IMG/VR virus record: IMGVR_UViG_3300007512_000011
Location: 1-64,000 of that record
Direction: 5' to 3' (one strand)
Origin: a virus
DNA: 64,000 bases
The position numbers were made by a program, and so were the translations under genes. Shown piece after piece: positions 10,824 to 43,031 of the stretch (positions are counted from its first letter, which is position 1; every line of letters starts with the position of its first letter). The notes under the pieces were generated by a model. The model was not told the DNA's origin. It worked only from the letters and a program-made list of their open reading frames with translations, and did not search any database.

Positions 10824-10876
10824 TGCTTATCCTCCAGCATAAATTAAGTATTTAGCTTTGAGAAAAACATCCCTAG

Positions 10877-11230
10877 CTAGTCATCTAGATTCTGACGAAT
10901 TCTAGAAGAAATCGCCTGGCCTTTTTGAACCGCTGTCGAGAGAGGTTCCAATCCCAACGCTACTCTAACCAGATCAAATGTGTAGCCATCAAGATTTTGC
11001 TTCAGCACAACCATGTCCGCATATTGATGCAAATCCCACTGTGACACAGGGACATCCTCACCCTCAAGCCCAGGTTCATAGTCACCTGTCTCACGAGACT
11101 CGAACATGTAGAGGAGACAGGGCATCTCCTCTCCCTCAGGAACAATAACAAACGGAATACTTGATGTCGATCCGTCTGCATTTTCCTCATAAAGAATCTC
11201 AGGGATCCAATTGCTTTCACTCATTACCAC
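10877..11230 (-). CDS. hypothetical protein
   Basis: 117-aa ORF with SD. Confidence 0.7.
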   Translation of the reverse strand: MVMSESNWIPEILYEENADGSTSSIPFVIVPEGEEMPCLLYMFESRETGDYEPGLEGEDVPVSQWDLHQYADMVVLKQNLDGYTFDLVRVALGLEPLSTAVQKGQAISSRIRQNLDD

Positions 11231-11281: not shown

Positions 11282-12052
11282 CTAGAGAGAAAGCTTTTCT
11301 CTAACATTATCGAATAGCTCCAGCAGCTGGGCTTTTTGTTCTGGAAAGTCTTTGCCCAGCTCGTCGGTCAAAGCACTAAATCCCTGTTGCCATTCTCCAA
11401 ACATGCCATCGATCCATTCAGGAATCTCTTGACTTCTCAGCGCATTTTCAAGAGCAGCTAGATCGCCTGTCACCTCTGCACTATGCTTTGCCAAAAAGTC
11501 AGAGATTTTACTTATATCAACATCAACACCGATAAAGCTGCCATACTTGGTGACCATTTCCTGCAAGTCGGAAGACCTTGAAATATCATTCAACTTACTA
11601 GCAACGCGATCGAGGTCACTTGATAGACTTTTCTTTAAGGCAGAAACATCTCCCATACTTAGATTCTCTGCCTCCTTGCCTGCCACTTCTGAAAAATGCT
11701 CAGCTACAGATGGAAAAATCTCTAGAAAACCCTTGGTGCCCTTTTTATTAATATCTGCTAAAATTTTTGAAAAATCAGCCGCGAGATCACCGCTACCAAC
11801 TCCAAGGTATTGAGCTATTTTTCCTGGCTTCACATCAGCCAGGAACATTGCTGTAATCGCTCCTCCGAATGTCGTTAGAGACTTTGGAACTCTGAAAAAG
11901 AGCCACTGTGCAGGCTCTTGCCCGTATAGCTCATAAAATGTCATAAATTGATTTTCCTGGGCTCTCTGGCCTAGCTGGAAACCCACCTTACCTATCTTCT
12001 CGCTAAGAAGGTCTCTCACAATATGTTTTAACTGTTCACGATCAGAGGACAC
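11282..12052 (-). CDS. hypothetical late protein with L-x-E leader
   Basis: DREQLKHIVRDLLSE leader; start uncertain (12052-12076). Confidence 0.65.
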   Translation of the reverse strand: MSSDREQLKHIVRDLLSEKIGKVGFQLGQRAQENQFMTFYELYGQEPAQWLFFRVPKSLTTFGGAITAMFLADVKPGKIAQYLGVGSGDLAADFSKILADINKKGTKGFLEIFPSVAEHFSEVAGKEAENLSMGDVSALKKSLSSDLDRVASKLNDISRSSDLQEMVTKYGSFIGVDVDISKISDFLAKHSAEVTGDLAALENALRSQEIPEWIDGMFGEWQQGFSALTDELGKDFPEQKAQLLELFDNVREKLSL

Positions 12053-12323
12053 CAAACATCTCCCTTCTCTCTGCAAGTGTACGAAGCTTTAGGTCAACAC
12101 CTGTCTGCTCCCTATAATAATTAATTAGCTCCTTCTCAAAATCATTCAACCACTGCTCCTTTGTCCTCGAATCACGACGAGAAAATCTTTTACGCAGCGG
12201 TGAGGGTATTCCTCGAAGAATCTCCTTCTTGACAGTCACCCAGTCATCGCAATCTCCAACATAGGATGCAACAAAGCGTAGCTGCTCTAAGATCCTATTC
12301 ATTCCTTGGTCAGATGCTTCCAT
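12042..12323 (-). CDS. hypothetical protein
   Basis: Overlaps both neighbours in the operon. Confidence 0.65.
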   Translation of the reverse strand: MEASDQGMNRILEQLRFVASYVGDCDDWVTVKKEILRGIPSPLRKRFSRRDSRTKEQWLNDFEKELINYYREQTGVDLKLRTLAERREMFGVL

Positions 12324-15300
12324 TGTACCTTGAAATTAAGCCCTGTAGTGCCCGAGTCACACTTGCAACCTCATTTGTAGATCCTGGAGAGCTCTCAGCA
12401 GCAATTGATCTTGGGTCTGGAAGATTTAAAGTTGACACAAGCTTAGCAAACTCCTCGCGGTCCCTCTCTGCATCAAGATCAATACCAGACTGTTTTAGTC
12501 TACGTAACGGCGAATTTTTAAGCTGAGATCTGATACCATAGTTTCCACCTCTAAAATTTCTAAAATAAACTGCACCCTGTGCAGGTGAGAAGTCAAAAAA
12601 CTCTGATGATCTGCTGTTACCATTCTCATCTGTTAGTGTGATCTTAAAGTCTGGATGCAGGTGAAACAAGCCTTTTCCCTTCACCTGAACTAGACCTGCC
12701 TTTTTAAGCATGTAATACTTCCGGAGCACATCTGCTGAAACAGTGTAAACAGCAAGCAACGCGCCTGAAATATTCTCTCCCATGCTTCGAAGAGCGGGTA
12801 ATACCACATCCCTATACTCCTCTTTGCTTATCTTAGCGAGGATGCTCTCTATCTCAGGCAGGTCATTCTTAGACCGATAGTCATTTATCACATCCCTTAC
12901 AAGTATCAACCTCCTGTTCACCTCAGCTGCTGTTGGATCCATGTTTATAAGATCTGCAATATCTTGGTTTTGCGGCTTAGGGTTTGAAGCAAAAAACTCA
13001 CCTTTGTCAAAGTCATACTTTAGTGTGGGCTCTCCTGCTTGAGCGTTTGGAAGCTTTACCTCGATGCCGAGCATTCCGCTGGCCATGGGAACATAGACAT
13101 CAGATACAGAGTTATCCTCTCCGCTTTGTACTTGGAGACCAGCTGCCTTGAGATTCTCACCTACATCAATCTCATACACATATCCTGCCTTCCGTTGGCC
13201 TCCGGTGACTCCAGCAATTCCAAAAATCACCATGAGGTCATCGAGATCAGGCATGACATATGCTGGATACTTGCTACTGGGGTTAGGATGCTCATCAGGT
13301 GCAAGCTCAATGATGCCCCTCGTGCGATCAGGTGATAATCTATCGTACATAAGGTTTAATATCTTATTGATATCATGACGATCATCGACACCTGGAGCCA
13401 AGCCAAGCCTAACTAGTTTGTTTGCACCTGACACATTGATTATTTTCTGTATGTCATTTCCGAAAAAATCAGGTGATTTAAGAATGTCAAAGATAACTCT
13501 TGACTTTTCAGTGAAGGATTTCGCGCTCTCATATGTCTCAGAACTCTCGTATAGCAGCTCTCTAACCTTTTGTCTAAAGCGCAGCTCAGCTAATTCACTT
13601 TCTGATGGGGCTTTAGAAATTGTAGCATTGATCACATCGATGGCCTTGCGGGCCTCATCCCTTACCTTCTCCGAGCTGGCATTTAATCTGTGTCCAATAT
13701 ATTCCTCAAATCTTTCTAGAGCTTCTCTAAATTCAGGTGTGTTCGCCATCAGCATATGAGACAAGAGATCCTCAAAGGTTCTGACAGAATTCTTATCCTC
13801 TACCTGCACGCCTAGCTTAGGAAGGTAATCATCAGGATCAGGTATCCTTCCTGATACATCTTCGACACCGTTAACTTTTTCACGTAGTCCGCCTGGAAAA
13901 GCTATTGTGTACTTAATAACCCTGTCTGATGTTGACTCTCTCTCACCTTTTATTTTAGCTAGAAGAGAAAACATTAGCTTATGATATTCACCCTTAACCT
14001 TTCCTTCTCCCCCACCAGAAAGTTCCCAGGATGTATCATCCATGCTAACACTTGGAAACAGGTCAACCTGAAATAATTGACCTGTTTCTGCATCCTTGAC
14101 CATTATGGCGATAAGCTGTCCCACCTTTAACACACGCGGTACACCTTCGACCAATTCATCACTGAGGTATGGCGAACTCAACATCTTTTGGTATAGTGTT
14201 TCCTTATCAGGCTCACTTACAACAAGATCAATATCACCGATCATTTGCTTGTCAGTTGCTGTACTACCCACAGGTAAGAACTTCATGCCTGACGGTTCCA
14301 GTAGATTCTTCTCAAGATCTTGGATTATCCTATCAGCCTGCTGTCTGGATATTCTATCATCTGATGTTGCAACAATCTTATTTCCCTGATCATCCTTCTT
14401 TTTAAAGGCCTTTCCACCCTCGGAGAGAATCTTCATTAAAATCTTATTCACTGTTTCACTTAGATCTTTATCACCTTCTCGGTCTGACATTTTTGCCTTG
14501 CCGTATGAAAAGAATCCACGCAATCTATTAATGGGTGTAAAAAGACCGGTTAACTTATAGGTCTTATTATTGTGTGTAAAGACAATGCCCTCTGTGGCGC
14601 GAGTAAATAAATCTTCATTAGCTTCAAGCCTCGCCAGGGCTACACGAATCCCCTCTAGTGTCTTCTCATCTTCAGATCCCAATCCAAAGTTAAACCCAGA
14701 TTCAAATGCACCCCTAACACCTTTAACAAATCCTAGCAGATCTTCCTGATTACTAGCCTGGAGGGCAAGATCAAGCTTATCAATAATCATAATACCCAGT
14801 CGCTGAATGATATTCTCAAGCGGAACAATTGCTTCTTGAACTACTCTAGTCTTTACTTTGTCGAGCGATCGAAAGCGCTGATAGTCTTCGGGGGATACCA
14901 TCTTCTTAAGTCGTAGTGCAACTTTTCCCTTTCCTGTCATAAATCTGTCAGCGACATCAGGAATCAGATCATCAGGAATAAATTTATATTTCTCACGAAT
15001 AAACTCCTCTAGCCTCGCTTTAACATAATCACCAACTGTATTATTGCCAATTGAAAGCCCAACCTCTCCAACAACTGACTCTAAGTCTTTCTCTAGTTGC
15101 TCAAGTGCACCATCATCCTCTTTAAGACCTTTCATAAGAGAGGCCGTCGGCACCTTGTCCATAGTAAAAGCGTCTGTTGAAGACTCCCGCATCTCTGACA
15201 TGAAGGATGACAGTGCATCCTGGTTAGCAGGCTCTTCTGTCAGAGAAACGGCAAGAACTGTCCTTAGAGAGTCCTCATCATATAAAATTGTATTAGGATT

Positions 15301-16599
15301 CTTTGAAACCATTATCTGTGATACCATCACAACCTCTCCATTTCTAAAGAGTGAATCCTGATATGGTAATGCTACGGGCTCTAGTGCCTCATAGGCAATT
15401 GCAAAACCTTCTGCAATGTTTGATCTATCTCCCGTATATGCAGACATAATCTGATTTAGCGTCATTCCGCCGCCAGCTCCACCTGCTCGAATTAGCTCTA
15501 GCCGTCGATCCTTTGCCCTCTGGCTCTGAAGGTCCATCTTAGTAAAAAATCTTAGCTGTCCATCAACAACTGTGAAAGCTAGAAACTGACCATCCATTTT
15601 TTCCTGAACATTCTCTAGTTTTCCTTCAAGCCCTAGACGGCCAATCTCAATAATATCGCTGAGAGGCATTCCTAGTTCTTCATACAGATTGTATATGTGT
15701 GCTTCCTCACCAGGCTTAGCGGTGTCTTTATCATCTTGCTCTGATAGAATTTTTATAGCAGAAAACTTTGTTGCAGCTCTTTTTATAACAATTTCTGAAA
15801 TGGCTGGCTCATTTATACTGCCCAGAAGAATTTCAATGATCTTGTCCTTTTCATCATTGTTAAGAAAAGGAGGAAGATATCGCTTGGCTTCTTCTGCTGT
15901 CTCTGGAGAAGATGCGAGATCTCTAACTCGAGTACCTCTAACAGACTGCAACTGTGCAATATCCTCGTCAGACAGGTCCTTTCGAGCTTCTCCTTCTAAC
16001 CCAGCATAATATCCCCTTAGTGCATCACGCGCTTCTTCTTCGGCGCGGGCCATTAGGCTATCTAACCTATCTGGATCCAGGTAGTCTTCTGGGCTTTCGG
16101 GAATGGCGCCGCCAAATTGGATCTTTCCCGCTGTCACAAAGTCTTTAAATTTTGGGCTTTTCATGTAAGGCATCATCGAAGATTTATCTCCATAGATAGT
16201 TACCTTTTCATACATGTCGGGATTCTCAACAAACTCCTCAAGATTCTTGAATATCGCTGTTACGGGTGCTCGAACTGCAGCGAGATCTCCCTGTTCATCC
16301 CTGGCCTGACTTTGCACCAGAACTACCTCGACGCCTGGGATTCTATCGAGTGCAGTCTTGTATATTTGAAAGATAGACTCAGCAACTTTCTCGTCATACT
16401 CTCTCTTTGTCTTGCCTATTCTTCTAAACTTCTGTCGAGGTGCCAGCGGCTTACCCCTCTTCCCGTATCTAATGGGCTCCACTTGCTGCATGCCGTAAAA
16501 TAGATACACCTTGTCATTATCGCGTATCGCGTCAGCCAACCTTGCAAAATGTCCAGTTGTGAAGGGCTTGAATCCTCCGCCGTAAAGTCCAAGCTTCAT
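12310..16599 (-). CDS. four-domain protein: HxGH nucleotidyltransferase + KxDG ligase-like + Pol-beta-type nucleotidyltransferase + PD-(D/E)xK nuclease-like
   Basis: GGGFKPFTTGH; EKMDGQ...EGIVF...YKLTG; VGS...GDIDL...FQVDL; YVYE...SDVYV...IEVK. Confidence 0.75.
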   Translation of the reverse strand: MKLGLYGGGFKPFTTGHFARLADAIRDNDKVYLFYGMQQVEPIRYGKRGKPLAPRQKFRRIGKTKREYDEKVAESIFQIYKTALDRIPGVEVVLVQSQARDEQGDLAAVRAPVTAIFKNLEEFVENPDMYEKVTIYGDKSSMMPYMKSPKFKDFVTAGKIQFGGAIPESPEDYLDPDRLDSLMARAEEEARDALRGYYAGLEGEARKDLSDEDIAQLQSVRGTRVRDLASSPETAEEAKRYLPPFLNNDEKDKIIEILLGSINEPAISEIVIKRAATKFSAIKILSEQDDKDTAKPGEEAHIYNLYEELGMPLSDIIEIGRLGLEGKLENVQEKMDGQFLAFTVVDGQLRFFTKMDLQSQRAKDRRLELIRAGGAGGGMTLNQIMSAYTGDRSNIAEGFAIAYEALEPVALPYQDSLFRNGEVVMVSQIMVSKNPNTILYDEDSLRTVLAVSLTEEPANQDALSSFMSEMRESSTDAFTMDKVPTASLMKGLKEDDGALEQLEKDLESVVGEVGLSIGNNTVGDYVKARLEEFIREKYKFIPDDLIPDVADRFMTGKGKVALRLKKMVSPEDYQRFRSLDKVKTRVVQEAIVPLENIIQRLGIMIIDKLDLALQASNQEDLLGFVKGVRGAFESGFNFGLGSEDEKTLEGIRVALARLEANEDLFTRATEGIVFTHNNKTYKLTGLFTPINRLRGFFSYGKAKMSDREGDKDLSETVNKILMKILSEGGKAFKKKDDQGNKIVATSDDRISRQQADRIIQDLEKNLLEPSGMKFLPVGSTATDKQMIGDIDLVVSEPDKETLYQKMLSSPYLSDELVEGVPRVLKVGQLIAIMVKDAETGQLFQVDLFPSVSMDDTSWELSGGGEGKVKGEYHKLMFSLLAKIKGERESTSDRVIKYTIAFPGGLREKVNGVEDVSGRIPDPDDYLPKLGVQVEDKNSVRTFEDLLSHMLMANTPEFREALERFEEYIGHRLNASSEKVRDEARKAIDVINATISKAPSESELAELRFRQKVRELLYESSETYESAKSFTEKSRVIFDILKSPDFFGNDIQKIINVSGANKLVRLGLAPGVDDRHDINKILNLMYDRLSPDRTRGIIELAPDEHPNPSSKYPAYVMPDLDDLMVIFGIAGVTGGQRKAGYVYEIDVGENLKAAGLQVQSGEDNSVSDVYVPMASGMLGIEVKLPNAQAGEPTLKYDFDKGEFFASNPKPQNQDIADLINMDPTAAEVNRRLILVRDVINDYRSKNDLPEIESILAKISKEEYRDVVLPALRSMGENISGALLAVYTVSADVLRKYYMLKKAGLVQVKGKGLFHLHPDFKITLTDENGNSRSSEFFDFSPAQGAVYFRNFRGGNYGIRSQLKNSPLRRLKQSGIDLDAERDREEFAKLVSTLNLPDPRSIAAESSPGSTNEVASVTRALQGLISRYNGSI

Positions 16600-17243
16600 T
16601 CTCTTCTCCTCGGCCAGTGCCCTTGCATCACTCTATATATTTCCTCGACAGCGCCGGGAAAATCTTGCATATTAATTGATAAATGTGCCCGAAGTGTTTC
16701 ACCATCCAGGCGGATATCACACCACTCATTTGACGTTTCACTCTTCTTTGTCGAGACAAGATCACACAGCCTATCAACATGAATTGGCGAGAAGCCCCAG
16801 ATGTCACAGCTAACATTGATCCTCTTTCCCCTAGTCCTGGGTGATATATGAATATGTCCATGAATTAAAAGATCATGATCAGAAAATAGCCTCTCGGGCA
16901 CAGGATGGTGCTGCACTAGTGCTTTTTGTCCATTTGGCAGTGTGTAATTCATCTTTCTATGGCACTCATCAAATCCAACCTCCTTCATCTTCTTGAGACT
17001 CAGATCATGATTTCCCTTTACAAGAACCTTGTAGCCTTTTAGCTGTGACATTATCTCTGGCATTTTTTGCTTACCACACAAAAACATGTCACCCACAACT
17101 ATCACTCTATCATCGTTGCCAACCACACCATTCCAATTGTCAATCAATGCACTATTCATCTCATCAACATTCGAAAATGGTCTATCACAATGCTTGATAA
17201 TATTTCTATGTCCGAAATGTAAGTCTGATGTGAAAAAGTCCAT
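16596..17243 (-). CDS. calcineurin-like metallophosphoesterase
   Basis: SDLHFGH, VGD, GNHD, HGHIH. Confidence 0.92.
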   Translation of the reverse strand: MDFFTSDLHFGHRNIIKHCDRPFSNVDEMNSALIDNWNGVVGNDDRVIVVGDMFLCGKQKMPEIMSQLKGYKVLVKGNHDLSLKKMKEVGFDECHRKMNYTLPNGQKALVQHHPVPERLFSDHDLLIHGHIHISPRTRGKRINVSCDIWGFSPIHVDRLCDLVSTKKSETSNEWCDIRLDGETLRAHLSINMQDFPGAVEEIYRVMQGHWPRRRE

Positions 17244-18502
17244 TAGAGGCCAAACTCCTCCGACATCATTCTAACAGCAGCATCATTCATCTTTAGCAGC
17301 TTCTGGTAGTCTTTCTCATTTAAGCCTCTGGCTTTTTTCTGCTCTACATTTCTTCTAAGATTTTCCTCATAGTGTGCTTTAATGGCATTCATCATATCCA
17401 GCGCGTCATAGTCCCCTCCAGTCTCAAGAGTCAGAGCTAATCCCTTTATTCCCTTCACAAGAGATCTCATGTCTACATTGTCTTTGTCAACACCAGGATT
17501 TCCAACCAAAAGCGGATGAGGATCTAGAGTATCTCCCATAAGGTAGGCAGCAATATCTACCAGAAAATTGCCGATATCTGTACTCACATTTTCAATCTTC
17601 ACATCTTTTTGAAACTTAGCAGGTACTCTCTTTCCCTCCCTAGACTTAATTGCCACCCCCTGGGTACCGACAGACATCACCAGATGGTCACCAAGAGACT
17701 TATATATGTTTCCTATCAGGTATCCCTTGACACCACGCTCTGGTGTATACCTACCCTTCATCCACTCTGCGTATCTCGGATACGTCGTGACTGTGTCTAC
17801 TTGGACTAGCTCTCCACCAGGCAGTGTTACAATGACCATATATGGGCTAGAGCCCGGTTTTAGTGTTAGCTCAATATCAACTTCAGCAGGTCTAGCAGAA
17901 TTTAAAAAATCAACAAACAATTGCTCATATTCTCGCTTGGCTGCATTTTCAGATTGTCGCCTGACTTTCTCATCATCTCCCTCTCGGTGAGTTACGGGAA
18001 GCTCTACCAGATAATCAATATCTCCATATTCTGCACTAGGTCTATCTGCAGCATCCTGTGAATAATAGCTTACAGACCCTACAGGCTTAATTGGCTTCAC
18101 AGGATCATGACCTGTTGACTCAAGATATGAATTCCACTGTCCCAAGAGATTCTCATACACCTTTATTGCCTGGCCCACTAGGGTGGGATTTAACTTTTTA
18201 TCGGAACCGCCGGGAATCTTTAATCCTCCCTCAGCGATCAAGCCGCTTCTAATTCCCAATCTTTTAGCACCATTTCTGAGATATCGAATTGCCTCGATTG
18301 CACTTTGAATTCTGTGTATCTCTTTTCTATTTTGAAGTCTTTTTGGACCACTCCTAAGCGTCCTTTTTAAGTGCTGAAGCTCGTTGATTATTCTATCAAG
18401 GTCTTCGACGTGACTTGTCGAGCCATATTCTGCTTCCGTTCCATCGTAAAGCCTTAGCATAGATTCACGAATAAGCTGTCTTAAAAGCTCTTCTGATCTC
18501 AT
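17243..18502 (-). CDS. Pol-beta-type nucleotidyltransferase with N-terminal leader domain
   Basis: VGSVSYY...GDIDYL...VQVD; leader EELLRQLIRES; LIAE|GG junction. Confidence 0.7.
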   Translation of the reverse strand: MRSEELLRQLIRESMLRLYDGTEAEYGSTSHVEDLDRIINELQHLKRTLRSGPKRLQNRKEIHRIQSAIEAIRYLRNGAKRLGIRSGLIAEGGLKIPGGSDKKLNPTLVGQAIKVYENLLGQWNSYLESTGHDPVKPIKPVGSVSYYSQDAADRPSAEYGDIDYLVELPVTHREGDDEKVRRQSENAAKREYEQLFVDFLNSARPAEVDIELTLKPGSSPYMVIVTLPGGELVQVDTVTTYPRYAEWMKGRYTPERGVKGYLIGNIYKSLGDHLVMSVGTQGVAIKSREGKRVPAKFQKDVKIENVSTDIGNFLVDIAAYLMGDTLDPHPLLVGNPGVDKDNVDMRSLVKGIKGLALTLETGGDYDALDMMNAIKAHYEENLRRNVEQKKARGLNEKDYQKLLKMNDAAVRMMSEEFGL

Positions 18503-18541
18503 AACATACCCCTATTGATAAGTATGATGAGACAACTGTTC

Positions 18542-19718: not shown

Positions 19719-20087
19719 TTATGCGGAGTTTTTTGTTGTTACGGTTAATTCTACATGATATGAATCGAGACCTTGTGCCTCAAATCTTGTCTCAAGAACA
19801 TTGACGTTTTTAAATGACAAAACTGGTTCATCAGAAGCATTATGAAGCACATCTAGTGTCACACTGCTTCTATTTCCAAGCATAACAAGTGCCTGATTAG
19901 CGTCACATAAAAATGATATAGAGATAATACCGGGAGAAGATATGATCTTTTGAGGTAGAAAATCAAGAATCCTACCCATTATCTGAAAACGACAGAGAAT
20001 TTCTGAAGGTGCTATATTATCGCCTAGCTGGGAGGCGGGGACTCTTCCCTTGAGAGAGTCACTCATAAAAATTGTGGTGCTAGACAT
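19719..20087 (-). CDS. hypothetical protein
   Basis: ORF overlapping the PCD stop. Confidence 0.55.
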   Translation of the reverse strand: MSSTTIFMSDSLKGRVPASQLGDNIAPSEILCRFQIMGRILDFLPQKIISSPGIISISFLCDANQALVMLGNRSSVTLDVLHNASDEPVLSFKNVNVLETRFEAQGLDSYHVELTVTTKNSA

Positions 20088-20484
20088 CTTCGCTTCTCTC
20101 GATGAAATATTTTGTATCCTCAAATATCTCATCACAAAATTTGGCCAATATTAGATCTTGCTCTGTAACTGCATTTATTGAATGTGTATATGACTCTATG
20201 CTAACCACTCTATGCTCTATTTGAATCAAAGCGTGATGATTCATTCTTTCTTGCTCTAGTAATAATTCATCAATAAAGTATCTCATGTCATCAAATCTAT
20301 CAAATTCAAAACTTTTGGCAATTCTTTCAGGCTCTTGTAAGATGACCCATTCTGGCTTTGAAACCTCGATAGGCAGTGGATCAGGTAGTGTGGTCTTCAG
20401 TGACCCCAGCGTCTGACCCACACTACTTGGCAAAGAACTACCCTCTAGTAATCTTTTGTCCACAAGATCTATCAGCGATTTCAT
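20080..20484 (-). CDS. pterin-4-alpha-carbinolamine dehydratase family protein with N-terminal extension
   Basis: ERMNHH...YTHS...VTEQDLILAKFCD. Confidence 0.82.
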   Translation of the reverse strand: MKSLIDLVDKRLLEGSSLPSSVGQTLGSLKTTLPDPLPIEVSKPEWVILQEPERIAKSFEFDRFDDMRYFIDELLLEQERMNHHALIQIEHRVVSIESYTHSINAVTEQDLILAKFCDEIFEDTKYFIERSEDV

Positions 20485-20485
20485 A

Positions 20486-22255
20486 TTATTTCCTTAAAAA
20501 CTTTCCAGTTCTTTTGGGTGCAGTCTTCAACGCCTTTTCAAGAATTCCGTAAGCTATATCCTCATCTAAAATGACATCTTGAATCTTGTCAACTAGATCA
20601 TTCATATACTGTTCAAAGTTTTGTGTTGTTAGCACTTCATCTGACACCTGCCGCCTGAAAGCACCATCAGCATTCATCTGTTGCATAAATGCTCTCATTC
20701 CGCCCTCCTTTGCTCCTTTTGTCTTTGCAGGATCAAGAATGGACTTTGCAACGCCCTGAATAAATGCAACAACAGCTTCAAATGAATTTCTAACGTTTAA
20801 ATATTGCTGTGAATTAGGGTCCATGTCTCGAGGAACAACTGCTGTGTTCTGGACTCTTAGGTATCCTTCAATTCCATCTCCTGGAAAAGTTGCACTATCA
20901 CCATCTAGCAGTGCATCTAAAACACTGGCTTCATCATCCTCATCGTAGCCTATACTCTCAACATAGTCTCGCATTGTTGATCTGAATAGATCATATGTTA
21001 CACCTGTTATCTGCTTTTGTGCGTTTAGCTTCATTGGATCATATGTGCTTGGAATTTTTTTCTCGCTTGGAAATCCTAGCATTGTAGCATCTTCTGGGTT
21101 GAACCCGAATACCTTAAGATCATCATAAAGAATATTTTGAATATTATTGACCTTTAAGCCTGTCTCATCTGCAATTTTTTCTTTAAGTGCTTGCAGGGCT
21201 TTTTGTGACATCTTGAGATCAACTCCTTCCTGCTCTAGAACTTCATCACGTAGTTGCTTGCGAATCTTTGCTGCCTCATGCGGATTGATTGTCTCTATTG
21301 CTGCAACTGGATCAACAGATTCCTCAGGCTCAGAGACTTCTTGCTCAGTTTCATCAGCAAGCTTTCTAAGCCCTTTTGCATTGTCCTCCATTCCCATTGC
21401 CTCTAGTTCGTCGGCGCGATCTCTAAGGGCAGCAACAAGCTCAAGACCCTCAAATCCAGTCTCCTTTCTAACTTTAGCCATCTCCTTGGCTGGTACACGT
21501 GCTGCTGCTTCTGCTTTTCCCGCAGCAATGTATCCAGAGACTTCTTCTGGTGTCACCTCTCGTTTTGCAAATCTAAGCATCTCATTTGCAACAGCAACCC
21601 TAACGTCCTTTATCTCATCTTCTGAGAGCTTGCTTTTTCGTAGAATGTTCTGAATAACTGAGTTTTTTTGCAGCTGGCTCAAAACTCGAAGCTGTACAAG
21701 TCTGGGTTCTGCAGCTCTTGTCATCGGTTTCCCACTTTCAGGATCAACACCGACAATGTCTTGAAAAAATGCAGGATTCGCAACAATGTAGTCAACTATC
21801 TTATCTGCTGCTTCAGAAACGGGATCTTCTATGGATAGCTTTATATCATCAAGAGATTCATCATCATTATCTTCTAAGAGCAGCCGAACTTTTTCTCGAA
21901 ACAATGTCTCGTCAAGAGTCTCCTCATAAGTCTTAGCATCATGCCTATCTAATGCATTGTCTAAAAGCCTGTGAAGCTTTCTATAGAAAAATTCAATCTG
22001 ATCTGCAGGCACCTCAGCAGATATAACAGAAGCTGCACGACCCAGTTCTTCAACATTTGACGGTATGTATACAGGATCGTCTACAGGGGGCATATCCACT
22101 GATAGCTGCACAGCCATTTGTGGTGTTGGCTCAATAGGCTCATCATCATCTGCACCTGGAATCATATCAATTCTCTCTGATCGATAACTTCGATCCTCAT
22201 TTAAGATCCTTAGAAGTGCTTCTTCCAGGGCACCTTTCTTTACTATGACGCGCAT
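20486..22255 (-). CDS. large acidic late protein with L-x-E motifs
   Basis: LEEALLRILNE, LDETLFREKVRLLLE; GAGGAG SD; ATATTTA at 22273-22279. Confidence 0.7.
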   Translation of the reverse strand: MRVIVKKGALEEALLRILNEDRSYRSERIDMIPGADDDEPIEPTPQMAVQLSVDMPPVDDPVYIPSNVEELGRAASVISAEVPADQIEFFYRKLHRLLDNALDRHDAKTYEETLDETLFREKVRLLLEDNDDESLDDIKLSIEDPVSEAADKIVDYIVANPAFFQDIVGVDPESGKPMTRAAEPRLVQLRVLSQLQKNSVIQNILRKSKLSEDEIKDVRVAVANEMLRFAKREVTPEEVSGYIAAGKAEAAARVPAKEMAKVRKETGFEGLELVAALRDRADELEAMGMEDNAKGLRKLADETEQEVSEPEESVDPVAAIETINPHEAAKIRKQLRDEVLEQEGVDLKMSQKALQALKEKIADETGLKVNNIQNILYDDLKVFGFNPEDATMLGFPSEKKIPSTYDPMKLNAQKQITGVTYDLFRSTMRDYVESIGYDEDDEASVLDALLDGDSATFPGDGIEGYLRVQNTAVVPRDMDPNSQQYLNVRNSFEAVVAFIQGVAKSILDPAKTKGAKEGGMRAFMQQMNADGAFRRQVSDEVLTTQNFEQYMNDLVDKIQDVILDEDIAYGILEKALKTAPKRTGKFLRK

Positions 22256-22290
22256 ACGAGACTCCTCACAGATAAATATCTGCGGTAGTT

Positions 22291-22734
22291 TTAATTTGCT
22301 GAGGCTTGTGAAACTGCCCAAACACCAAAAGACGTCGCCAGAATACCTGTTACAATCCCACCTACATACCAGGCTGATGCTGACGGGCTTCCTCTCCTTT
22401 TAATTTGTGTATTAAGAAGATCAATATGATCATTCTTTACAATTAAAATTTCTTCGCTGCGCTTCTCACAAAAGTCCAATCTGATCTTCTCAACATCAAC
22501 CAGATATTGCATTTCAGCCTCTTTTATGGCTGTTGCCTGCTCTATTTTTATCTGGCATGCTTGCTGTGCGTTCTCAAGATCTATGGCTATCTTGGCTGCA
22601 GCAGCTGTGCTAAATAGTGTTCCAGAAAAAGGAGCTGTATCTCCTACTTGCAAAGTTACTATTTTTTCCTCTTGAGGCTCATCTGCAAATACAACTCCCA
22701 TTGTAGCAATCATTAAAGCTCCAAACAGCATCAT
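22291..22734 (-). CDS. secreted coiled-coil protein with C-terminal TM helix (spanin-like?)
   Basis: Signal peptide, heptad region, WYVGGIVTGILATSFGVWAV. Confidence 0.55.
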   Translation of the reverse strand: MMLFGALMIATMGVVFADEPQEEKIVTLQVGDTAPFSGTLFSTAAAAKIAIDLENAQQACQIKIEQATAIKEAEMQYLVDVEKIRLDFCEKRSEEILIVKNDHIDLLNTQIKRRGSPSASAWYVGGIVTGILATSFGVWAVSQASAN

Positions 22735-23966: not shown

Positions 23967-24254
23967 CTAATCATCTGAGAGCGGGCTCTCCTGCGCAATT
24001 ACATCAAATAGCGACTCTGCATCTGTCTGTGATAGCTTCTTAATAGTCTTACTGCGCTTTCTCTGTGAAAGATCATCAAGAATGTGAATCATATCAGGTG
24101 ACCCTGCTGCTATTTTCTGCGACACTTCCTCAAATACCTCTTGCATGGAAAGCCTCTTCTTAAAGCATGTGATTCTTAACTCTGCGTGAGTGGCACGTGT
24201 AATATTAAAATGTATTGTCTTTTTTGTCTCAAAATCAATGTACTTATCAGACAT
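23967..24254 (-). CDS. ribbon-helix-helix-like DNA-binding protein
   Basis: KTIHFNITRATHAELRITC...SMQEVFEE pattern. Confidence 0.55.
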   Translation of the reverse strand: MSDKYIDFETKKTIHFNITRATHAELRITCFKKRLSMQEVFEEVSQKIAAGSPDMIHILDDLSQRKRSKTIKKLSQTDAESLFDVIAQESPLSDD

Positions 24255-24853
24255 CAGCCACCACCGCCGCCGAGGCCCCCTGTGCCGCCGGCATATGCAC
24301 CTACAGCGTACGGCGCGTCAGGTGTGTCTTCCGCGCCTTCCAGATTAAAATCAAACTGTGTATCAAGTATCTCTCTCATCTGGTTAACATGTGCCTGGTC
24401 GTAATTTTCAAGCAAATAATTTTTCGCTCTATTCAAAATAACTGATCTCACATCAAGCAAAACAGCATTGTTCATTACAAGTCTTGCAACTCTCTTTGTA
24501 AAGGCATCGATGTTTAGAGGAAGCGCTTGAATCTCTTCAGCAGGCTCTGTGGCATCGATCTTTGTGCTATCCTCAGGCTCTGGAACCTCTGGCTCTTCCT
24601 CTTCATCCGGTTCCTCCTCGCCTTCCTCTTGCTCAAACAAAAGATCAACCAGGGATCTAACACGTGTCTCTGAAAGCGCACCCTCAGGTGAAATTGAATC
24701 CTTTTCAAATTTTATCAAAAATGAGTCTATCTGGTCATCAACAGAATCTAGACCTAGCCTAGTCTTATCAGTCTCGTCCTCGGCTGACAACATCTCTTCC
24801 ATTGCCTCAAGAATGAGTTTTCTAATCATTTTTTTATTCATTTCCATCTTCAA
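24254..24853 (-). CDS. acidic late protein with L-x-E leader
   Basis: KKMIRKLILEAMEE; DSVDDQID; LLFEQ. Confidence 0.7.
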   Translation of the reverse strand: MKMEMNKKMIRKLILEAMEEMLSAEDETDKTRLGLDSVDDQIDSFLIKFEKDSISPEGALSETRVRSLVDLLFEQEEGEEEPDEEEEPEVPEPEDSTKIDATEPAEEIQALPLNIDAFTKRVARLVMNNAVLLDVRSVILNRAKNYLLENYDQAHVNQMREILDTQFDFNLEGAEDTPDAPYAVGAYAGGTGGLGGGGG

Positions 24854-25545
24854 GCCCTCAACGCCTTTTGAATCTTATCAGCCTTACGAATTCTCTCTTC
24901 GATGACATTCCAATTAAGTTGCTTCATCATTGCATGCACATATGTTCTTGCATCTCTCAAATAATCTCGATAATAAGCATGTTGCCACACATCCATAACA
25001 ATGACTGGGTAAGAGCCAATTGGAATCTGCAGGCTGTGTAGGTCAACAACACAATTTACATACCTCTGGAGATATGTGCTATAAATGGTCACAGCCCATC
25101 CACATCTAGATGCCATGCAACATGCGATAAAATCCTCCTGCCACTTGTCAAAACCCCCAAAGTCACGAGAAAGTCGCATATAAGAAAGTGAATCCATTGA
25201 TATCTGGCTATGAAGATCACTTATGTTTGAAAAATAAAGCTCATGAAGGTATGCTCCATTCATGTTGTATGCTTCGTCAATCTTCAAGGACCTATACTCT
25301 GAATGATTAGAATTTGCTGCAGACCTATCTGCTGTATCTAGCTCAGCACTCACACGATTGAAATTTTCAACATACCCTTCATACAGCTCAATGTGGTTCC
25401 TCTTATTAGCCACACTTAACAGCTCCGTCGGTAAATTATATTGCTTCAGCTGTGCAACATACGCTTCATTCAGCTCTTCATTTTCATTGAGCCCTAACGA
25501 TTCACGTATGTTATCTCTCAGATTCTTATTAGTAAAGTCTGACAT
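24850..25545 (-). CDS. Fe/Mn superoxide dismutase family protein with N-terminal leader
   Basis: HIELYEGYV, NGAYLHELYF, GWAV, MDVWQHAYY. Confidence 0.9.
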   Translation of the reverse strand: MSDFTNKNLRDNIRESLGLNENEELNEAYVAQLKQYNLPTELLSVANKRNHIELYEGYVENFNRVSAELDTADRSAANSNHSEYRSLKIDEAYNMNGAYLHELYFSNISDLHSQISMDSLSYMRLSRDFGGFDKWQEDFIACCMASRCGWAVTIYSTYLQRYVNCVVDLHSLQIPIGSYPVIVMDVWQHAYYRDYLRDARTYVHAMMKQLNWNVIEERIRKADKIQKALRA

Positions 25546-41065: not shown

Positions 41066-41872
41066 CTAATTTTGAACCTCGGGAACCCAGTGTGTAGTTC
41101 TTCCGTCAGAAGTTCTTTCCTTGATTACTTGATTACCGATTGGATCAACATCCTGATTATAAACAGCAAATCTTCTAGTGTATTTGCCAGAATTTCCATC
41201 AAAATCTTGATATGTGGAAATAGTTGCACCGCCAGTCCTATAAGACTCACGGATAGTTGATTTTATGCTTTTATTTAAAGCAGAAATCTCTCGATCACTA
41301 AGACTACTACAAAGTCTATGGGGAGAAATTCTGGCCATATATAGTGATTCTGCTTTTAGATAATTTCCAACCCCTGCGATCACAGATTGATCCATTACTG
41401 CCTGGACAATAGTTTTATTCTTTCTTTTTCTTAGAGCATTTTTAAATTCAAAATCAGTTATATCTTGTGATAGCATATCTGGGCCTAGCTTTGTGAGCTT
41501 GCGACACAAGTAGTCATGACCTTTTACAAACCTTAGTGTTCCAAAGTTACGCATATCATTAAAGAAGATCTCATCATCTTCAATGGTTAATTTAACCCTA
41601 CTATGTTTCGTCGCCCCTGACTGCCATGTACCTGACATTCCCAATGTGCTCCAGATGCTCCAGCCTTCATCTAGCTTAAAGTAAATAAATTTTCCATGAC
41701 ATTCAACAGAAGTTATCATTCTTGGTAAATTTTTGATAAGATCAAATGATCCCTCTGGAGGGCCGTGCCTTGTGTATCTTCCACTTAACAAATCAATCTT
41801 AAGTAAACATTTTTCTGTGAGCCTCTCTGATAAAGCGTCAACGATATGTCTAACTTCTGGACCCTCTGGCAT
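41066..41872 (-). CDS. Fpg/Nei family DNA glycosylase with cysteine-free C-terminal finger
   Basis: MPEGPEV, HGKF, LGMSG, DMRNFG, GVGNYLKAESL, GRTTHW. Confidence 0.92.
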   Translation of the reverse strand: MPEGPEVRHIVDALSERLTEKCLLKIDLLSGRYTRHGPPEGSFDLIKNLPRMITSVECHGKFIYFKLDEGWSIWSTLGMSGTWQSGATKHSRVKLTIEDDEIFFNDMRNFGTLRFVKGHDYLCRKLTKLGPDMLSQDITDFEFKNALRKRKNKTIVQAVMDQSVIAGVGNYLKAESLYMARISPHRLCSSLSDREISALNKSIKSTIRESYRTGGATISTYQDFDGNSGKYTRRFAVYNQDVDPIGNQVIKERTSDGRTTHWVPEVQN

Positions 41873-41917
41873 AAAAACCCCTGTAGAAATGTTACCACTT
41901 AAATTCAAAGTGTTCAA

Positions 41918-42577
41918 ATGAAAAGAGTAATCATTTCCGATACACACATAGGCAGTCAATTCTACAAATCAAGTGAGCTATTAAGCTTTTTAACAAGTGA
42001 AAGCTATGATCAGCTTATTCTAGCCGGAGACATTATTGATTTCATAAAAATCCCGGTCTTTACCAATCGGTGTAAAAAGATTCTAGAAACAATCGATTAT
42101 CAGAAAGAGATCATCTATGTAGTCGGAAATCACGATGAAAGCTTAGTCGGTCTAATAGGAGACAACCTTTTTGGCATTAACTTTGTCAAAAAATATGAGT
42201 TTGAAGAAGGAGGCAGAAAATTTAGAATAGAGCACGGTGATGAGTACACCAAAGGTGCACTGCATAATAAGCTCTTTGTAACACTTCTGTCTGTCATCCA
42301 GAACATTCTTGAATTCACATTTAAGTTTGACTTTACTACATGGTGGACAGGAATTCAGATTAAGCGTCACAAATTACGAAGCGTCATTCATGTGCTTAGG
42401 CACAATGAAGATGTGGATGTCTTTATAATGGGACACACCCATAATCCTGAAGCGTTAATATGGGTGGACGAAGATCAACATATTAAGACTTATATTAATG
42501 CTGGCGACTGGGTCACTCATCAAACCTATGTCACTATTATTGATAGTATCGCTCGATTACGAAAGTTCGAATCATAG
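41918..42577 (+). CDS. metallophosphoesterase, LpxH-like family
   Basis: SDTHIG, GDIID, GNHD, HGD, GHTH, NAGDW; the only plus-strand gene. Confidence 0.88.
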   Translation: MKRVIISDTHIGSQFYKSSELLSFLTSESYDQLILAGDIIDFIKIPVFTNRCKKILETIDYQKEIIYVVGNHDESLVGLIGDNLFGINFVKKYEFEEGGRKFRIEHGDEYTKGALHNKLFVTLLSVIQNILEFTFKFDFTTWWTGIQIKRHKLRSVIHVLRHNEDVDVFIMGHTHNPEALIWVDEDQHIKTYINAGDWVTHQTYVTIIDSIARLRKFES

Positions 42578-42596: not shown

Positions 42597-43031
42597 TTAA
42601 GCAACCTGAGCAGTTTGATTTTTTAACCATGTGTGATAGTCATTTAGGGCATTATCTCTGGGTTGCACATCTTTCCAATCGCCTAAGCAAAAAATACGAT
42701 AAGCATCGGAAGCATACTTTCCGATCCCGTAGAGAACTTCTGGGTTATCCCTCCACTTCTTGTTGATGTAATCATCAGACATTCTCACCAGGGCCTTAGA
42801 TCGTCTCTGTGACAATCCTAGCGGCTGTATCATAGTCTTGACATCTTCAAGATTTGCATTCGACGCTGCTTGTGGAGTTGGGTATTTTAGAAAAAATTCC
42901 CACATATACGGTTCTGCATCAACCCTTTTTGTTAGGTTGCAAAAGATACATGCGACAAATATTTTCCAGGGATCCTGCCAAAGATGCTCTTGAATGAGAT
43001 TGTAAGGTGAGCGTGGGGGCTGCCAGGACAT
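42597..43031 (-). CDS. MBD4-like HhH mismatch DNA glycosylase
   Basis: WQPPRSPYNLIQEHLWQDPWK, PLGL, LYGIGKYASDAY, P.D..L..Y. Confidence 0.88.
   Translation of the reverse strand: MSWQPPRSPYNLIQEHLWQDPWKIFVACIFCNLTKRVDAEPYMWEFFLKYPTPQAASNANLEDVKTMIQPLGLSQRRSKALVRMSDDYINKKWRDNPEVLYGIGKYASDAYRIFCLGDWKDVQPRDNALNDYHTWLKNQTAQVA

Follow-up and report, generated by a model that had tools for sequence, protein, structure and literature searches.

What is the task of a viral gene block that encodes two nucleotidyltransferases (NTases), a phosphoesterase and a ligase-like domain? The block in question lies in IMG/VR virus record IMGVR_UViG_3300007512_000011, a 115-kb linear contig of an uncultured marine phage with a CheckV completeness of ∼38%, of which the first 64 kb (positions 1 to 64,000, hereafter the window) were analyzed. 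The full phage genome is probably ∼300 kb, and nearly all genes of the contig are carried on the minus strand. Five minus-strand open reading frames (ORFs) make up the block: P0001 (17243–18502, 419 aa), P0002 (16596–17243, 215 aa, a metallophosphoesterase), P0003 (12310–16599, 1429 aa, with four modules, D1–D4), P0004 (12042–12323, 93 aa) and the variable P0005 (ORF 11282–12076, or from a GTG start at 12052, ∼256 aa). Successive genes, from P0001 to P0005, overlap by 1, 4, 14 and at least 11 nt and are translationally coupled. An earlier note, made from the sequence alone, had described five overlapping genes behind one ATACTTA motif, which we recovered along with the motif itself (18519–18525), and had read them as an operon that restores tRNA ends or nucleotide cofactors destroyed by host defenses, or that modifies host targets at entry. 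The analysis presented here indicates that the block is probably a heal, fill and seal kit for broken polynucleotides; that it acts on the phage's own DNA we propose tentatively. All block coordinates given below are on the minus strand.

Gene fission occurring naturally in relatives divides P0003 into D1 (residues 1–266), D2 (∼290–716), D3 (∼728–1018) and D4 (∼1132–1393). AlphaFold2 models of P0001 (predicted local distance difference test score, pLDDT, 89.7) and of P0003 residues 267–1429 (pLDDT 78) were compared with the PDB; all structural comparisons are VIA-align Z-scores or Foldseek matches made with these predicted models, not with experimental structures. P0001 (residues 96–345) gave Z-scores of 10.1 with Pol beta (184 residues aligned), 10.0 with African swine fever virus (ASFV) PolX (170/176 residues) and ∼9.5 with TdT, Pol lambda and Thermus PolX, the overall range for family X being 8.3–10.1 over 168–206 aligned residues. 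For D3 (residues 728–1018, 13546–14418), the same family scored 8.0–10.3 over 159–197 residues, with Pol beta reaching 10.3 and ASFV PolX 8.8, and Pol mu scored ∼8.4 against P0001 and D3. Pol lambda headed the Foldseek list for P0001 and matched D3 with an E-value of 2e-5. Family X fills the top structural ranks for both proteins. Other NTases of the Pol-beta superfamily (TUTases, CD-NTases, MenT and CCA-adding enzymes) gave Z-scores no higher than 7.8 with the ∼95-residue core alone aligned: 5.8–5.9 for CCA-adding enzymes, ∼7 for CD-NTases (core alone) and 7.6 for MenT1 over 92 residues of the D3 core. The earlier note had considered CCA-adding enzymes and cyclic-nucleotide synthases; such candidates, and cGAS-like enzymes with them, were set aside, being placed below family X (Z-scores of 8–10) by alignments confined to a core of ∼90 residues. 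On these models, P0001 residues 92–345 (17468–18229) and D3 each fold as a minimal family-X polymerase with palm and thumb.

In the P0001 family the GS motif (G142-S143), D161, D163 and D236 are invariant, as are G778, D789, D791 and D846 in D3, and the P0003-family profile aligns GS...GDIDL with the catalytic GS...GDVDV of Pol lambda. When the P0001 family was compared with D3 by hhalign (probability 94.6%, E-value 7e-8, 139 columns), the EGG, GS, GDID, QVD and VKG motifs were all in register. Judged by these profiles, P0001 and D3 are true paralogues, as had been proposed from the same motifs; the relationship is visible to profiles only, BLASTP of P0001 against P0003 giving no similarity. 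Beyond the polymerase part, P0001 ends in a helical domain (residues 346–419, 17246–17467; modeled helices 345–361, 367–391 and 396–417) for which no match was found. P0001 and P0003 matched nothing in Pfam, PHROGs or PADLOC, nor in NCBIfam above cut-off. Pfam was likewise silent on D3 and on 40 P0001-family members, the NCBIfam PolX profile stayed far below threshold (E-value 0.029, 12.9 bits versus a cut-off of 426), and the RlaP profile PF10127 gave no match at E ≤ 0.5 in 40 P0001-family members, nor in P0003. Among GenBank phages there was no match for the block (megablast) or for P0001 or D3 (tblastn), and P0003 found only two records, both through D1–D2.

The residues expected of a sealing enzyme are found in D2 (residues ∼290–716, 14452–15732): motif I (K334-x-D-G, here K334-M-D-G), motif IV (E670-G-I-V-F) and motif V (K679/K682) are invariant or nearly so in 34–35 sequences. 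The highest Z-scores of the modeled domain were with NgrRnl (7.8), T4 Rnl2 (7.3), Trl1 (7.0) and Rnl3 (6.9), with 172–206 residues aligned in each case, followed by REL1 (6.6), T4 Rnl1 (6.3) and the ASFV DNA ligase (6.3). The model contains a helical insert of ∼170 aa and no OB domain, and D2 is on this basis assigned as a Rnl-type ATP-dependent ligase without an OB domain. The RNA_ligase profile PF09414 matched neither P0003 nor anything else in the 115-kb contig; in distant relatives it reaches E ≤ 1e-3 in 3 of 47.

P0002 is the only protein of the block recognized by Pfam or PHROGs (phrog_547, E-value 1.8e-48; Pfam Metallophos_2, 24.4 bits, just below the cut-off of 27). It carries the motif set SDLHFGH, GDMF, GNHD, HH and GHIH, has Aquifex aq_1665 (1xm7, E-value 8e-9) as a structural relative, and is by these signatures a calcineurin-like binuclear metallophosphoesterase. 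Its best NCBIfam match, and its best named relative, is PdeM (TIGR04123, E-value 3.5e-5), a phosphoesterase of DNA damage that is associated with a ligase.

At the N-terminus of P0003, D1 (residues 1–266, 15802–16599) has the motifs of an HxGH/CTP_transf_like nucleotidyltransferase. The HxGH motif reads TTGH in this copy, Thr replacing the first His, and HTGH in relatives; GGGFKPF(T/H)TGH and a second, ISxT-type motif, VRGTxVR, are kept in 15 sequences. This copy of D1 has no Pfam match and scores 16.5 bits against NCBIfam cyt_tran_rel (cut-off 27.7), while its Atlas neighbors are PF01467 clusters and CTP_transf_like (PF01467) is matched by 8 of 47 fused relatives. The sole named relatives, NadM and NadR NMNATs, are weak (profile E-value 0.02 over 37 residues at the motif), and one D1 relative is labelled NMNAT by JGI. 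Taken by its motifs, D1 appears to be an NMNAT-like HxGH fold. The KxDG, HxGH and phosphoesterase motifs are all present and conserved, HxGH in its TxGH form here.

The C-terminal module, D4 (residues 1132–1393, 12421–13206), gave moderate Z-scores with I-Ssp6803I (7.2), HhaI (6.9) and Hjc (6.3–6.7). Its clade keeps an E...D...E-x-K pattern (RKAGYxYE, SD[IV]Y and GIE[VI]K), and relatives swap in other D...ExK variants. We assign the modeled D4 to the PD-(D/E)xK nuclease fold. Between D3 and D4 lies an alpha/beta region (residues 1019–1131, 13207–13542) whose only matches, to complex I subunits at Z ∼7, were judged uninformative.

That these modules belong together is indicated by their distribution. 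The D1–D2–D3 triad occurs in one conserved neighborhood in 19 of 61 IMG/VR loci; co-occurrence of the genes in relatives had been set beforehand as a test of the proposed operon, and the triad was found in these 19 related viral contigs. The P0001 and phosphoesterase genes accompany it in 9–10 of the 19 triad loci and are absent from the closest clade, that of the 1145-aa proteins. The syntenic order is a 611-aa gene, pterin-4a dehydratase, a 238-aa and an 83-aa gene, P0001, the phosphoesterase, P0003, P0004, three small genes and GroEL. Metagenomic relatives of P0001 and P0003 are numerous, several coming from marine (Tara) data, and a D2–D3 profile searched against 1.84 billion representatives retrieved 2,104 clusters (50% identity). 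Fusion architectures were counted in the top 150 of the 2,104 cluster representatives: D2 alone (51), D3 alone (16), D2–D3 (14), D2–D3–D4 (8), D1–D2 (at least 7), D1–D2–D3–D4 (5) and D3–D4 (4), with permuted D3–D2 and D2–D1 forms also present. Since the HxGH enzyme, the ligase, the PolX-like enzyme and the nuclease have been fused repeatedly and independently, there is strong evidence, at the level of gene architecture, that they act in one pathway. None of the modules belongs to a curated family. Two relatives of P0003, P0026 and P0030, carry a Cys-containing insert of ∼229 residues between D2 and D3 that ends in L-x-E/GG (here and below, a slash marks a candidate cleavage position).

The pairing extends to a cultured jumbo phage. 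In Atu_ph07, a 324-aa RNA_ligase-like (PF09414) gene overlaps a 277-aa D3-like gene, and the pair adjoins a primase/helicase gene. Beside the pair lie eight tandem paralogous genes of ∼255 aa (MF403008, 44090–50592), all starting M[RK]W.QLTE; an NTase array was considered for them and rejected, as they are unrelated to D3. Fold relatives in BFVD include a P-SSM2 protein, giant-virus PolX proteins and phage RNA ligases. Despite this fold match, the D2–D3 profile search found nothing in P-SSM2.

How might the enzymes work together? In the heal, fill and seal kit that we consider probable, the metallophosphoesterase and/or the PD-(D/E)xK nuclease would clean or create ends, P0001 and D3 would extend a 3′-OH by the missing nucleotide(s), and the D2 ligase would seal the nick through a lysyl-AMP intermediate on Lys334. 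The fused NMNAT-like HxGH domain would supply or recycle the adenylate cofactor, which is the least understood step. We infer these enzyme activities, like the substrate, cleavage and packaging considered below, from sequence. Of the repair logic put forward in the earlier note, end-healing, nucleotide addition and ligation are backed by the folds, catalytic residues and fusions, while several of its specifics are not retained.

As the substrate of such a kit, DNA is slightly preferred over RNA. We lean, with reservations, toward the DNA version, in which the phage's own genome is the substrate and the damage would consist of gaps made by phage glycosylases of the Fpg and HhH-GPD types or of breaks made by host nucleases. 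The window encodes an Fpg/Nei glycosylase with three Pfam domains (41066–41959, minus strand), a small HhH-GPD glycosylase (42597–43031, minus strand) and a superoxide dismutase (SOD). The earlier inventory of ligase-like, NTase and phosphoesterase domains stands, and it had missed these base-excision glycosylases as well as the PD-(D/E)xK nuclease. Base-excision initiators are unusual in phage. Fpg leaves one-nucleotide gaps with 3′-phosphates, whose repair takes a phosphatase, a polymerase that fills the gap and a ligase, and the two glycosylases may feed the polymerase–ligase block. DNA is also favored by the PolX thumb, the PD-(D/E)xK nuclease, the weak PdeM match of P0002, the lack of a kinase, and the lack of any other ligase, searches of the 115-kb contig and of five related ones, all 29–58% complete, having turned up no further DNA or RNA ligase family.

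Two known DNA-repair systems resemble this arrangement in part. ASFV Pol X consists of palm and thumb only and carries out viral base-excision repair together with an AP endonuclease and a ligase of the same virus. Like it, the phage enzymes have the palm-plus-thumb build, the GS motif and the three-Asp set, and a virus again pairs PolX with a ligase of its own. Unlike ASFV PolX, they lack detectable sequence membership, carry extra N- and C-terminal helical modules and occur as two paralogues; their partner ligase is of Rnl type without an OB domain, and no Xth/Nfo-type AP endonuclease was seen. Bacterial LigD, to which the likeness is functional only, follows the same logic: a phosphoesterase that cleans ends, a polymerase that adds nucleotides and an ATP-dependent ligase are physically coupled, in LigD within one polypeptide. 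LigD serves non-homologous end joining, adds ribonucleotides and seals 3′-ribo nicks. None of its modules is homologous to those of the phage, however: the LigD polymerase is primase-type (AEP), its phosphoesterase has another fold, its ligase has an OB domain, and no Ku was found here. A ribonucleotide-tolerant, LigD-like chemistry would reconcile an RNA-ligase-type sealer with PolX-type fillers.

Several observations weigh against DNA as the substrate and, in part, against the folds on which the kit is built. D2 is closer to RNA ligases than to DNA ligases and has no OB domain; the Z-scores of 6–8 for D2 and D4 lie where chance fold resemblance occurs; the PdeM match of P0002 is far below its cut-off; the glycosylase genes are >20 kb from the block, and Fpg is present in two of five fragmentary relatives. 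The contig is only ∼38% complete, so that absences prove little. Finally, an RNA ligase with a Pol-beta NTase and a phosphoesterase is an established phage RNA-repair pattern (PMC7824862, PMC12776372).

This pattern defines the strongest alternative, repair of RNA and of tRNA in particular, which had also been the emphasis of the earlier note. The phosphoesterase would heal the 2′,3′-cyclic or 3′-phosphates left by host anticodon nucleases, RlaP-like NTases would restore one or two nucleotides, and the ligase would reseal the strand. The nearest structures to D2 are indeed RNA ligases (NgrRnl, T4 Rnl2, Trl1, Rnl3, REL1 and Rnl1), and PF09414 is matched in distant relatives and in the Atu_ph07 neighbor. 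Precedents exist: RlaP, a Pol-beta NTase found with an RNA ligase, adds one or two nucleoside monophosphates to damaged RNA 3′ ends ahead of ligation (PMC12776372); RNA ligases occur with phosphoesterases in jumbo phages, and phage Rnl2 proteins include ligase–nuclease fusions (PMC7824862); and CthPnkp heals 2′,3′ ends with a binuclear metallophosphoesterase (PMC3675462, PMC2190708). The phage block shares with these sets (T4 Pnkp/Rnl1/Rnl2, Pnkp-Hen1, RtcB/Rnl plus RlaP) a Rnl-type ligase accompanied by a Pol-beta NTase and a phosphoesterase. It differs from them in having no polynucleotide kinase, in its non-RlaP NTases with a PolX thumb, and in the PD-(D/E)xK and HxGH modules fused on.

For lack of a kinase, the block departs from the T4 Pnk/Rnl1 scheme invoked in the earlier note. 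No Walker A motif or 5′-kinase is present in P0001–P0005, and AAA_33 gave no match in the contig, while 14 of 14 control genomes were positive; with the contig ∼38% complete, a distant kinase gene is possible. No Tpt1, 2H or RtcB context was seen, and the window contains one tRNA gene only. The NTases match family X including the thumb rather than RlaP (no PF10127 in 40 members), CCA-adding enzymes reach a Z-score of only 5.8–5.9, and the fused nuclease has the fold of a DNA enzyme. RNA repair is on balance unlikely, and we retain repair of the phage's DNA as the tentative preference.

The domain junctions of P0003 raise a further question, namely whether it is made as a polyprotein. Three candidate sites of the form [L/I/M]-x-E are found there: L285-S-E287/Q at the D1/D2 junction (15736–15747, conserved in 27 of 32 sequences), L725-S-E727/GG at D2/D3 (14416–14427, 34/34) and L1016-Y-E1018/S at D3/D4 (13543–13554, 27/31), the last followed by a variable acidic linker. 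A second D2/D3 site, L713-S-E715/T, lies just upstream of the first (29/33), and the D1/D2 site corresponds by homology to the place where the N-terminal leader of D2-first relatives ends. The best-conserved [L/I/M]-x-E tripeptides of P0003 are those at the three domain junctions, and all of these sites fall in linkers with pLDDT below 50 (model residues 441–463 at D2/D3 and 743–755 at D3/D4).

P0001 begins in a comparable way. Its residues 1–91 (18230–18502) comprise a leader (LLRQLIRE) and a helical hairpin (modeled helices 29–51 and 59–87; pLDDT below 50 at residues 6–12 and 84–92) and end in I89-A-E91/GG, inside the low-confidence stretch 84–92. Among 120 P0001 relatives, 111 have a leader ending in x-E, preceded by L (75), I (30), V (4) or M (2), before an invariant Gly-Gly, and eight start M-GG; the leader is either 7–19 residues long (type M..LRQLIR..L.E) or a hairpin of ∼90 residues. 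Stand-alone D3 proteins start M-GG in 14 of 21 cases and have a leader ending in [LIVM]xE/GG in five, ligase-first proteins show the same leader-or-none dichotomy, and an identical leader occurs on one ligase protein and one PolX-like protein. In five loci the P0001 hairpin is a free-standing ORF of ∼105 aa upstream of the D1 (HxGH) gene (L002, 9615–9938; L003, 9663–10001; L004, 9693–10001; L006, 9615–9935; L048, 9668–9988). These ORFs share the leader type at their start, and most of them end near L-x-E, and the relatives that have them lack both the PolX-like part and the phosphoesterase. P0005 also starts with this leader type (SSDREQLKHIVRDLLSE/K). A loose version of the leader motif had 5 of its 13 matches within the first 25 residues, a zone that makes up 7.5% of all residues.

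The contig encodes a candidate for the protease as well. Outside the window, a gp21-type prohead protease gene is present at 95406–96017 (PF03420, E-value 1.3e-26), and such a protease is present in two of five related contigs. The gp23-type major capsid gene (89934–91889, also outside the window; PF07068, E-value 4.6e-68) codes for a protein with several L-x-E sites in its N-terminal region. The lineage combines a T4-like head module with, yet, a DnaE-type replicase. The cleavage rule of T4 itself is L/I-x-E. Prohead proteases of the T4 family recognize short motifs and cleave behind their Glu, and the propeptides that target T4 proteins to the head have 10–20 residues (PMC5694885, PMC9026906).

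Because of the conserved [L/I/M]-x-E junctions, the leaders and the gp21-type protease gene, proteolytic processing with head packaging is plausible, at a strength somewhat short of an even chance. The gp21-type prohead protease would separate the modules at [L/I/M]-x-E, and the products, packed in the head, would reach the cell along with the DNA. In its full form, which we regard as rather doubtful, P0003 would be a true polyprotein cut together with the 419-aa protein in the maturing head, and the products ejected with the genome would be a ligase, two PolX-like polymerases each starting Gly-Gly, a nuclease and an NMNAT-like enzyme. The earlier suggestion of action at entry gains support from the same junctions, leader peptides and protease gene. 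Three points speak against processing and packaging: P0003 and P0002 themselves have no N-terminal leader, [LIM]-x-E is common (26 in P0003 versus ∼22 expected), and conserved helix ends could mimic cleavage sites.

We know of no described example of a head-packaged repair-enzyme polyprotein. The closest parallels are the T4 internal proteins and Alt and the ejection proteins of phiKZ/SPN3US-type giant phages, which have propeptides of 10–20 or ∼100 residues ending in x-E, are cleaved by gp21-family proteases and are delivered together with the DNA (PMC5694885, PMC9026906). Like the T4 proteins, those studied here have, by sequence pattern, leaders that end in a short x-E motif in a phage that encodes a gp21-type protease; unlike them, the cargo would consist of nucleic-acid repair enzymes, one of them a four-enzyme polyprotein. 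The leader-bearing proteins may form a group located inside the head. Further proteins that start with the leader type, h-[RK]-x-h-h...h-x-E, were noticed in the window at 24254–24853, 20486–22321 (from Met23) and ∼7870–8251, and in the contig at ∼94930–95415, the last adjoining the protease gene. The Fe/Mn SOD (24850–25545, minus strand) has ∼28 extra N-terminal residues with NIRE/S, LNE/N and LNE/A, and may bear a leader.

The leaders also bear on a second alternative, in which the block is a replication and recombination set free of any host conflict: D2 would be the phage's sole ligase for Okazaki fragments and nicks, and PolX and nuclease would trim primers, flaps and genome ends. The absence of other ligase families from the contig and its five relatives fits this reading, as do the replication and nucleotide genes in which the window is rich (DnaE-type polymerase, DnaB, ribonucleotide reductase, thymidine kinase and DHH) and the Atu_ph07 pair next to a primase/helicase gene. 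However, with contigs that are 29–58% complete a canonical ligase may be elsewhere, and one would not expect replication enzymes to have leaders and [LIM]-x-E junctions. Close relatives can do without the 419-aa gene and the phosphoesterase, and a distribution as patchy and modular as this one is typically seen with accessory genes. We consider a replication role quite improbable.

The evidence for packaging would also suit injected effectors, with NTases that block host tRNAs or RNAs in the manner of MenT and a nuclease that attacks host DNA at entry, so that the block would serve takeover and not repair. MenT1 is among the D3-core matches (Z-score 7.6, 92 residues), and packaged, protease-processed T4 enzymes that hit host targets, such as Alt, are known (PMC9026906). 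The MenT match covers the shared NTase core only and ranks under family X, a toxin scheme offers no evident part for the ligase and the phosphoesterase, and the repeated NTase–ligase fusion argues for sequential action on one substrate; effectors of this kind are very unlikely. Least probable of all is cofactor restoration or signaling, also raised in the earlier note, in which D1 would rebuild NAD+ lost to host NADases and the NTases would make or cap signaling nucleotides: NadM and NadR are the best named relatives of D1, one relative is labelled NMNAT by JGI, and HIGH-type NMNATs belong to known phage NAD+ pathways (PMC7824862), but the D1 matches are weak (E-value 0.02) and confined to the HxGH motif, the recurrent fusion partner of D1 is the ligase and not an NAD enzyme, no Nampt or NAPRTase partner was found in the contig and no Nudix or kinase fusion was seen, the NTases look like templated polymerases and align with CD-NTases in the core only, and a PADLOC search of the block gave no match.

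The remaining features concern expression of the block and its surroundings. P0004 lies downstream of the P0003 homologue in 15 loci (49–94% identity) and has no family match in Pfam, PHROGs or NCBIfam. P0005 likely starts at GTG 12052, which is preceded by an AAGGGAG Shine–Dalgarno sequence; it is conserved only in locus L001 and, weakly, in L013. The ATACTTA motif at 18519–18525 lies 17–23 nt upstream of the P0001 ATG at 18502. ATACTTA is rarer in the window than expected by chance (three copies versus 7.8), each of the three copies on the coding strand of the 115-kb contig precedes an ORF start by 23–37 nt, and of the 33 copies of ATANTTA 17 precede a start by no more than 60 nt, in a zone that makes up 5.7% of the strand. 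Because copies cluster just upstream of ORF starts, a promoter-like role for the motif is plausible. A conserved 117-aa gene (10877–11230, minus strand; 47–91% identity in 16 syntenic loci) is probably the last gene of the transcription unit, since both the next ATACTTA (10845–10851, upstream of 10823) and a strong terminator come after it. The latter is an intrinsic-terminator-like hairpin (10398–10374, minus strand) with an 11-bp stem, seven GC pairs and a T run, which follows a 134-aa gene and is the sole convincing terminator between 10 and 20 kb of the window. The block is flanked by genes for pterin-4a-carbinolamine dehydratase (20080–20484, minus strand) and GroEL (8295–9908, minus strand), both syntenic in relatives. 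A portal identity for the upstream 611-aa gene was dropped, with a faint Herpes_UL6 match only and nothing in PHROGs, PDB or Atlas.

To our knowledge, there are essentially no descriptions of family-X-type polymerases from tailed phages. The sequence-orphan PolX-like and Rnl-type ligase families together span at least 2,104 metagenomic clusters at 50% identity and take in unannotated genes of cultured phages, namely Atu_ph07 and probably, by fold, P-SSM2. Their fusions with an HxGH enzyme and a nuclease define a widespread uncharacterized break-repair module, part of which an earlier RNA-repair survey may cover, and the compact polymerase and the ligase without an OB domain are possible reagents. 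Such a module could explain how large marine phages handle oxidative and UV damage or host nucleases. If the leaders and protease sites are what they appear to be, the enzymes would represent a new cargo class for phage heads, and a leader ending in [LIM]-x-E would provide a simple sequence rule for packaged proteins in this lineage. The block would then be the first virion-delivered nucleic-acid repair kit, mending incoming DNA or host-inflicted damage before phage gene expression.

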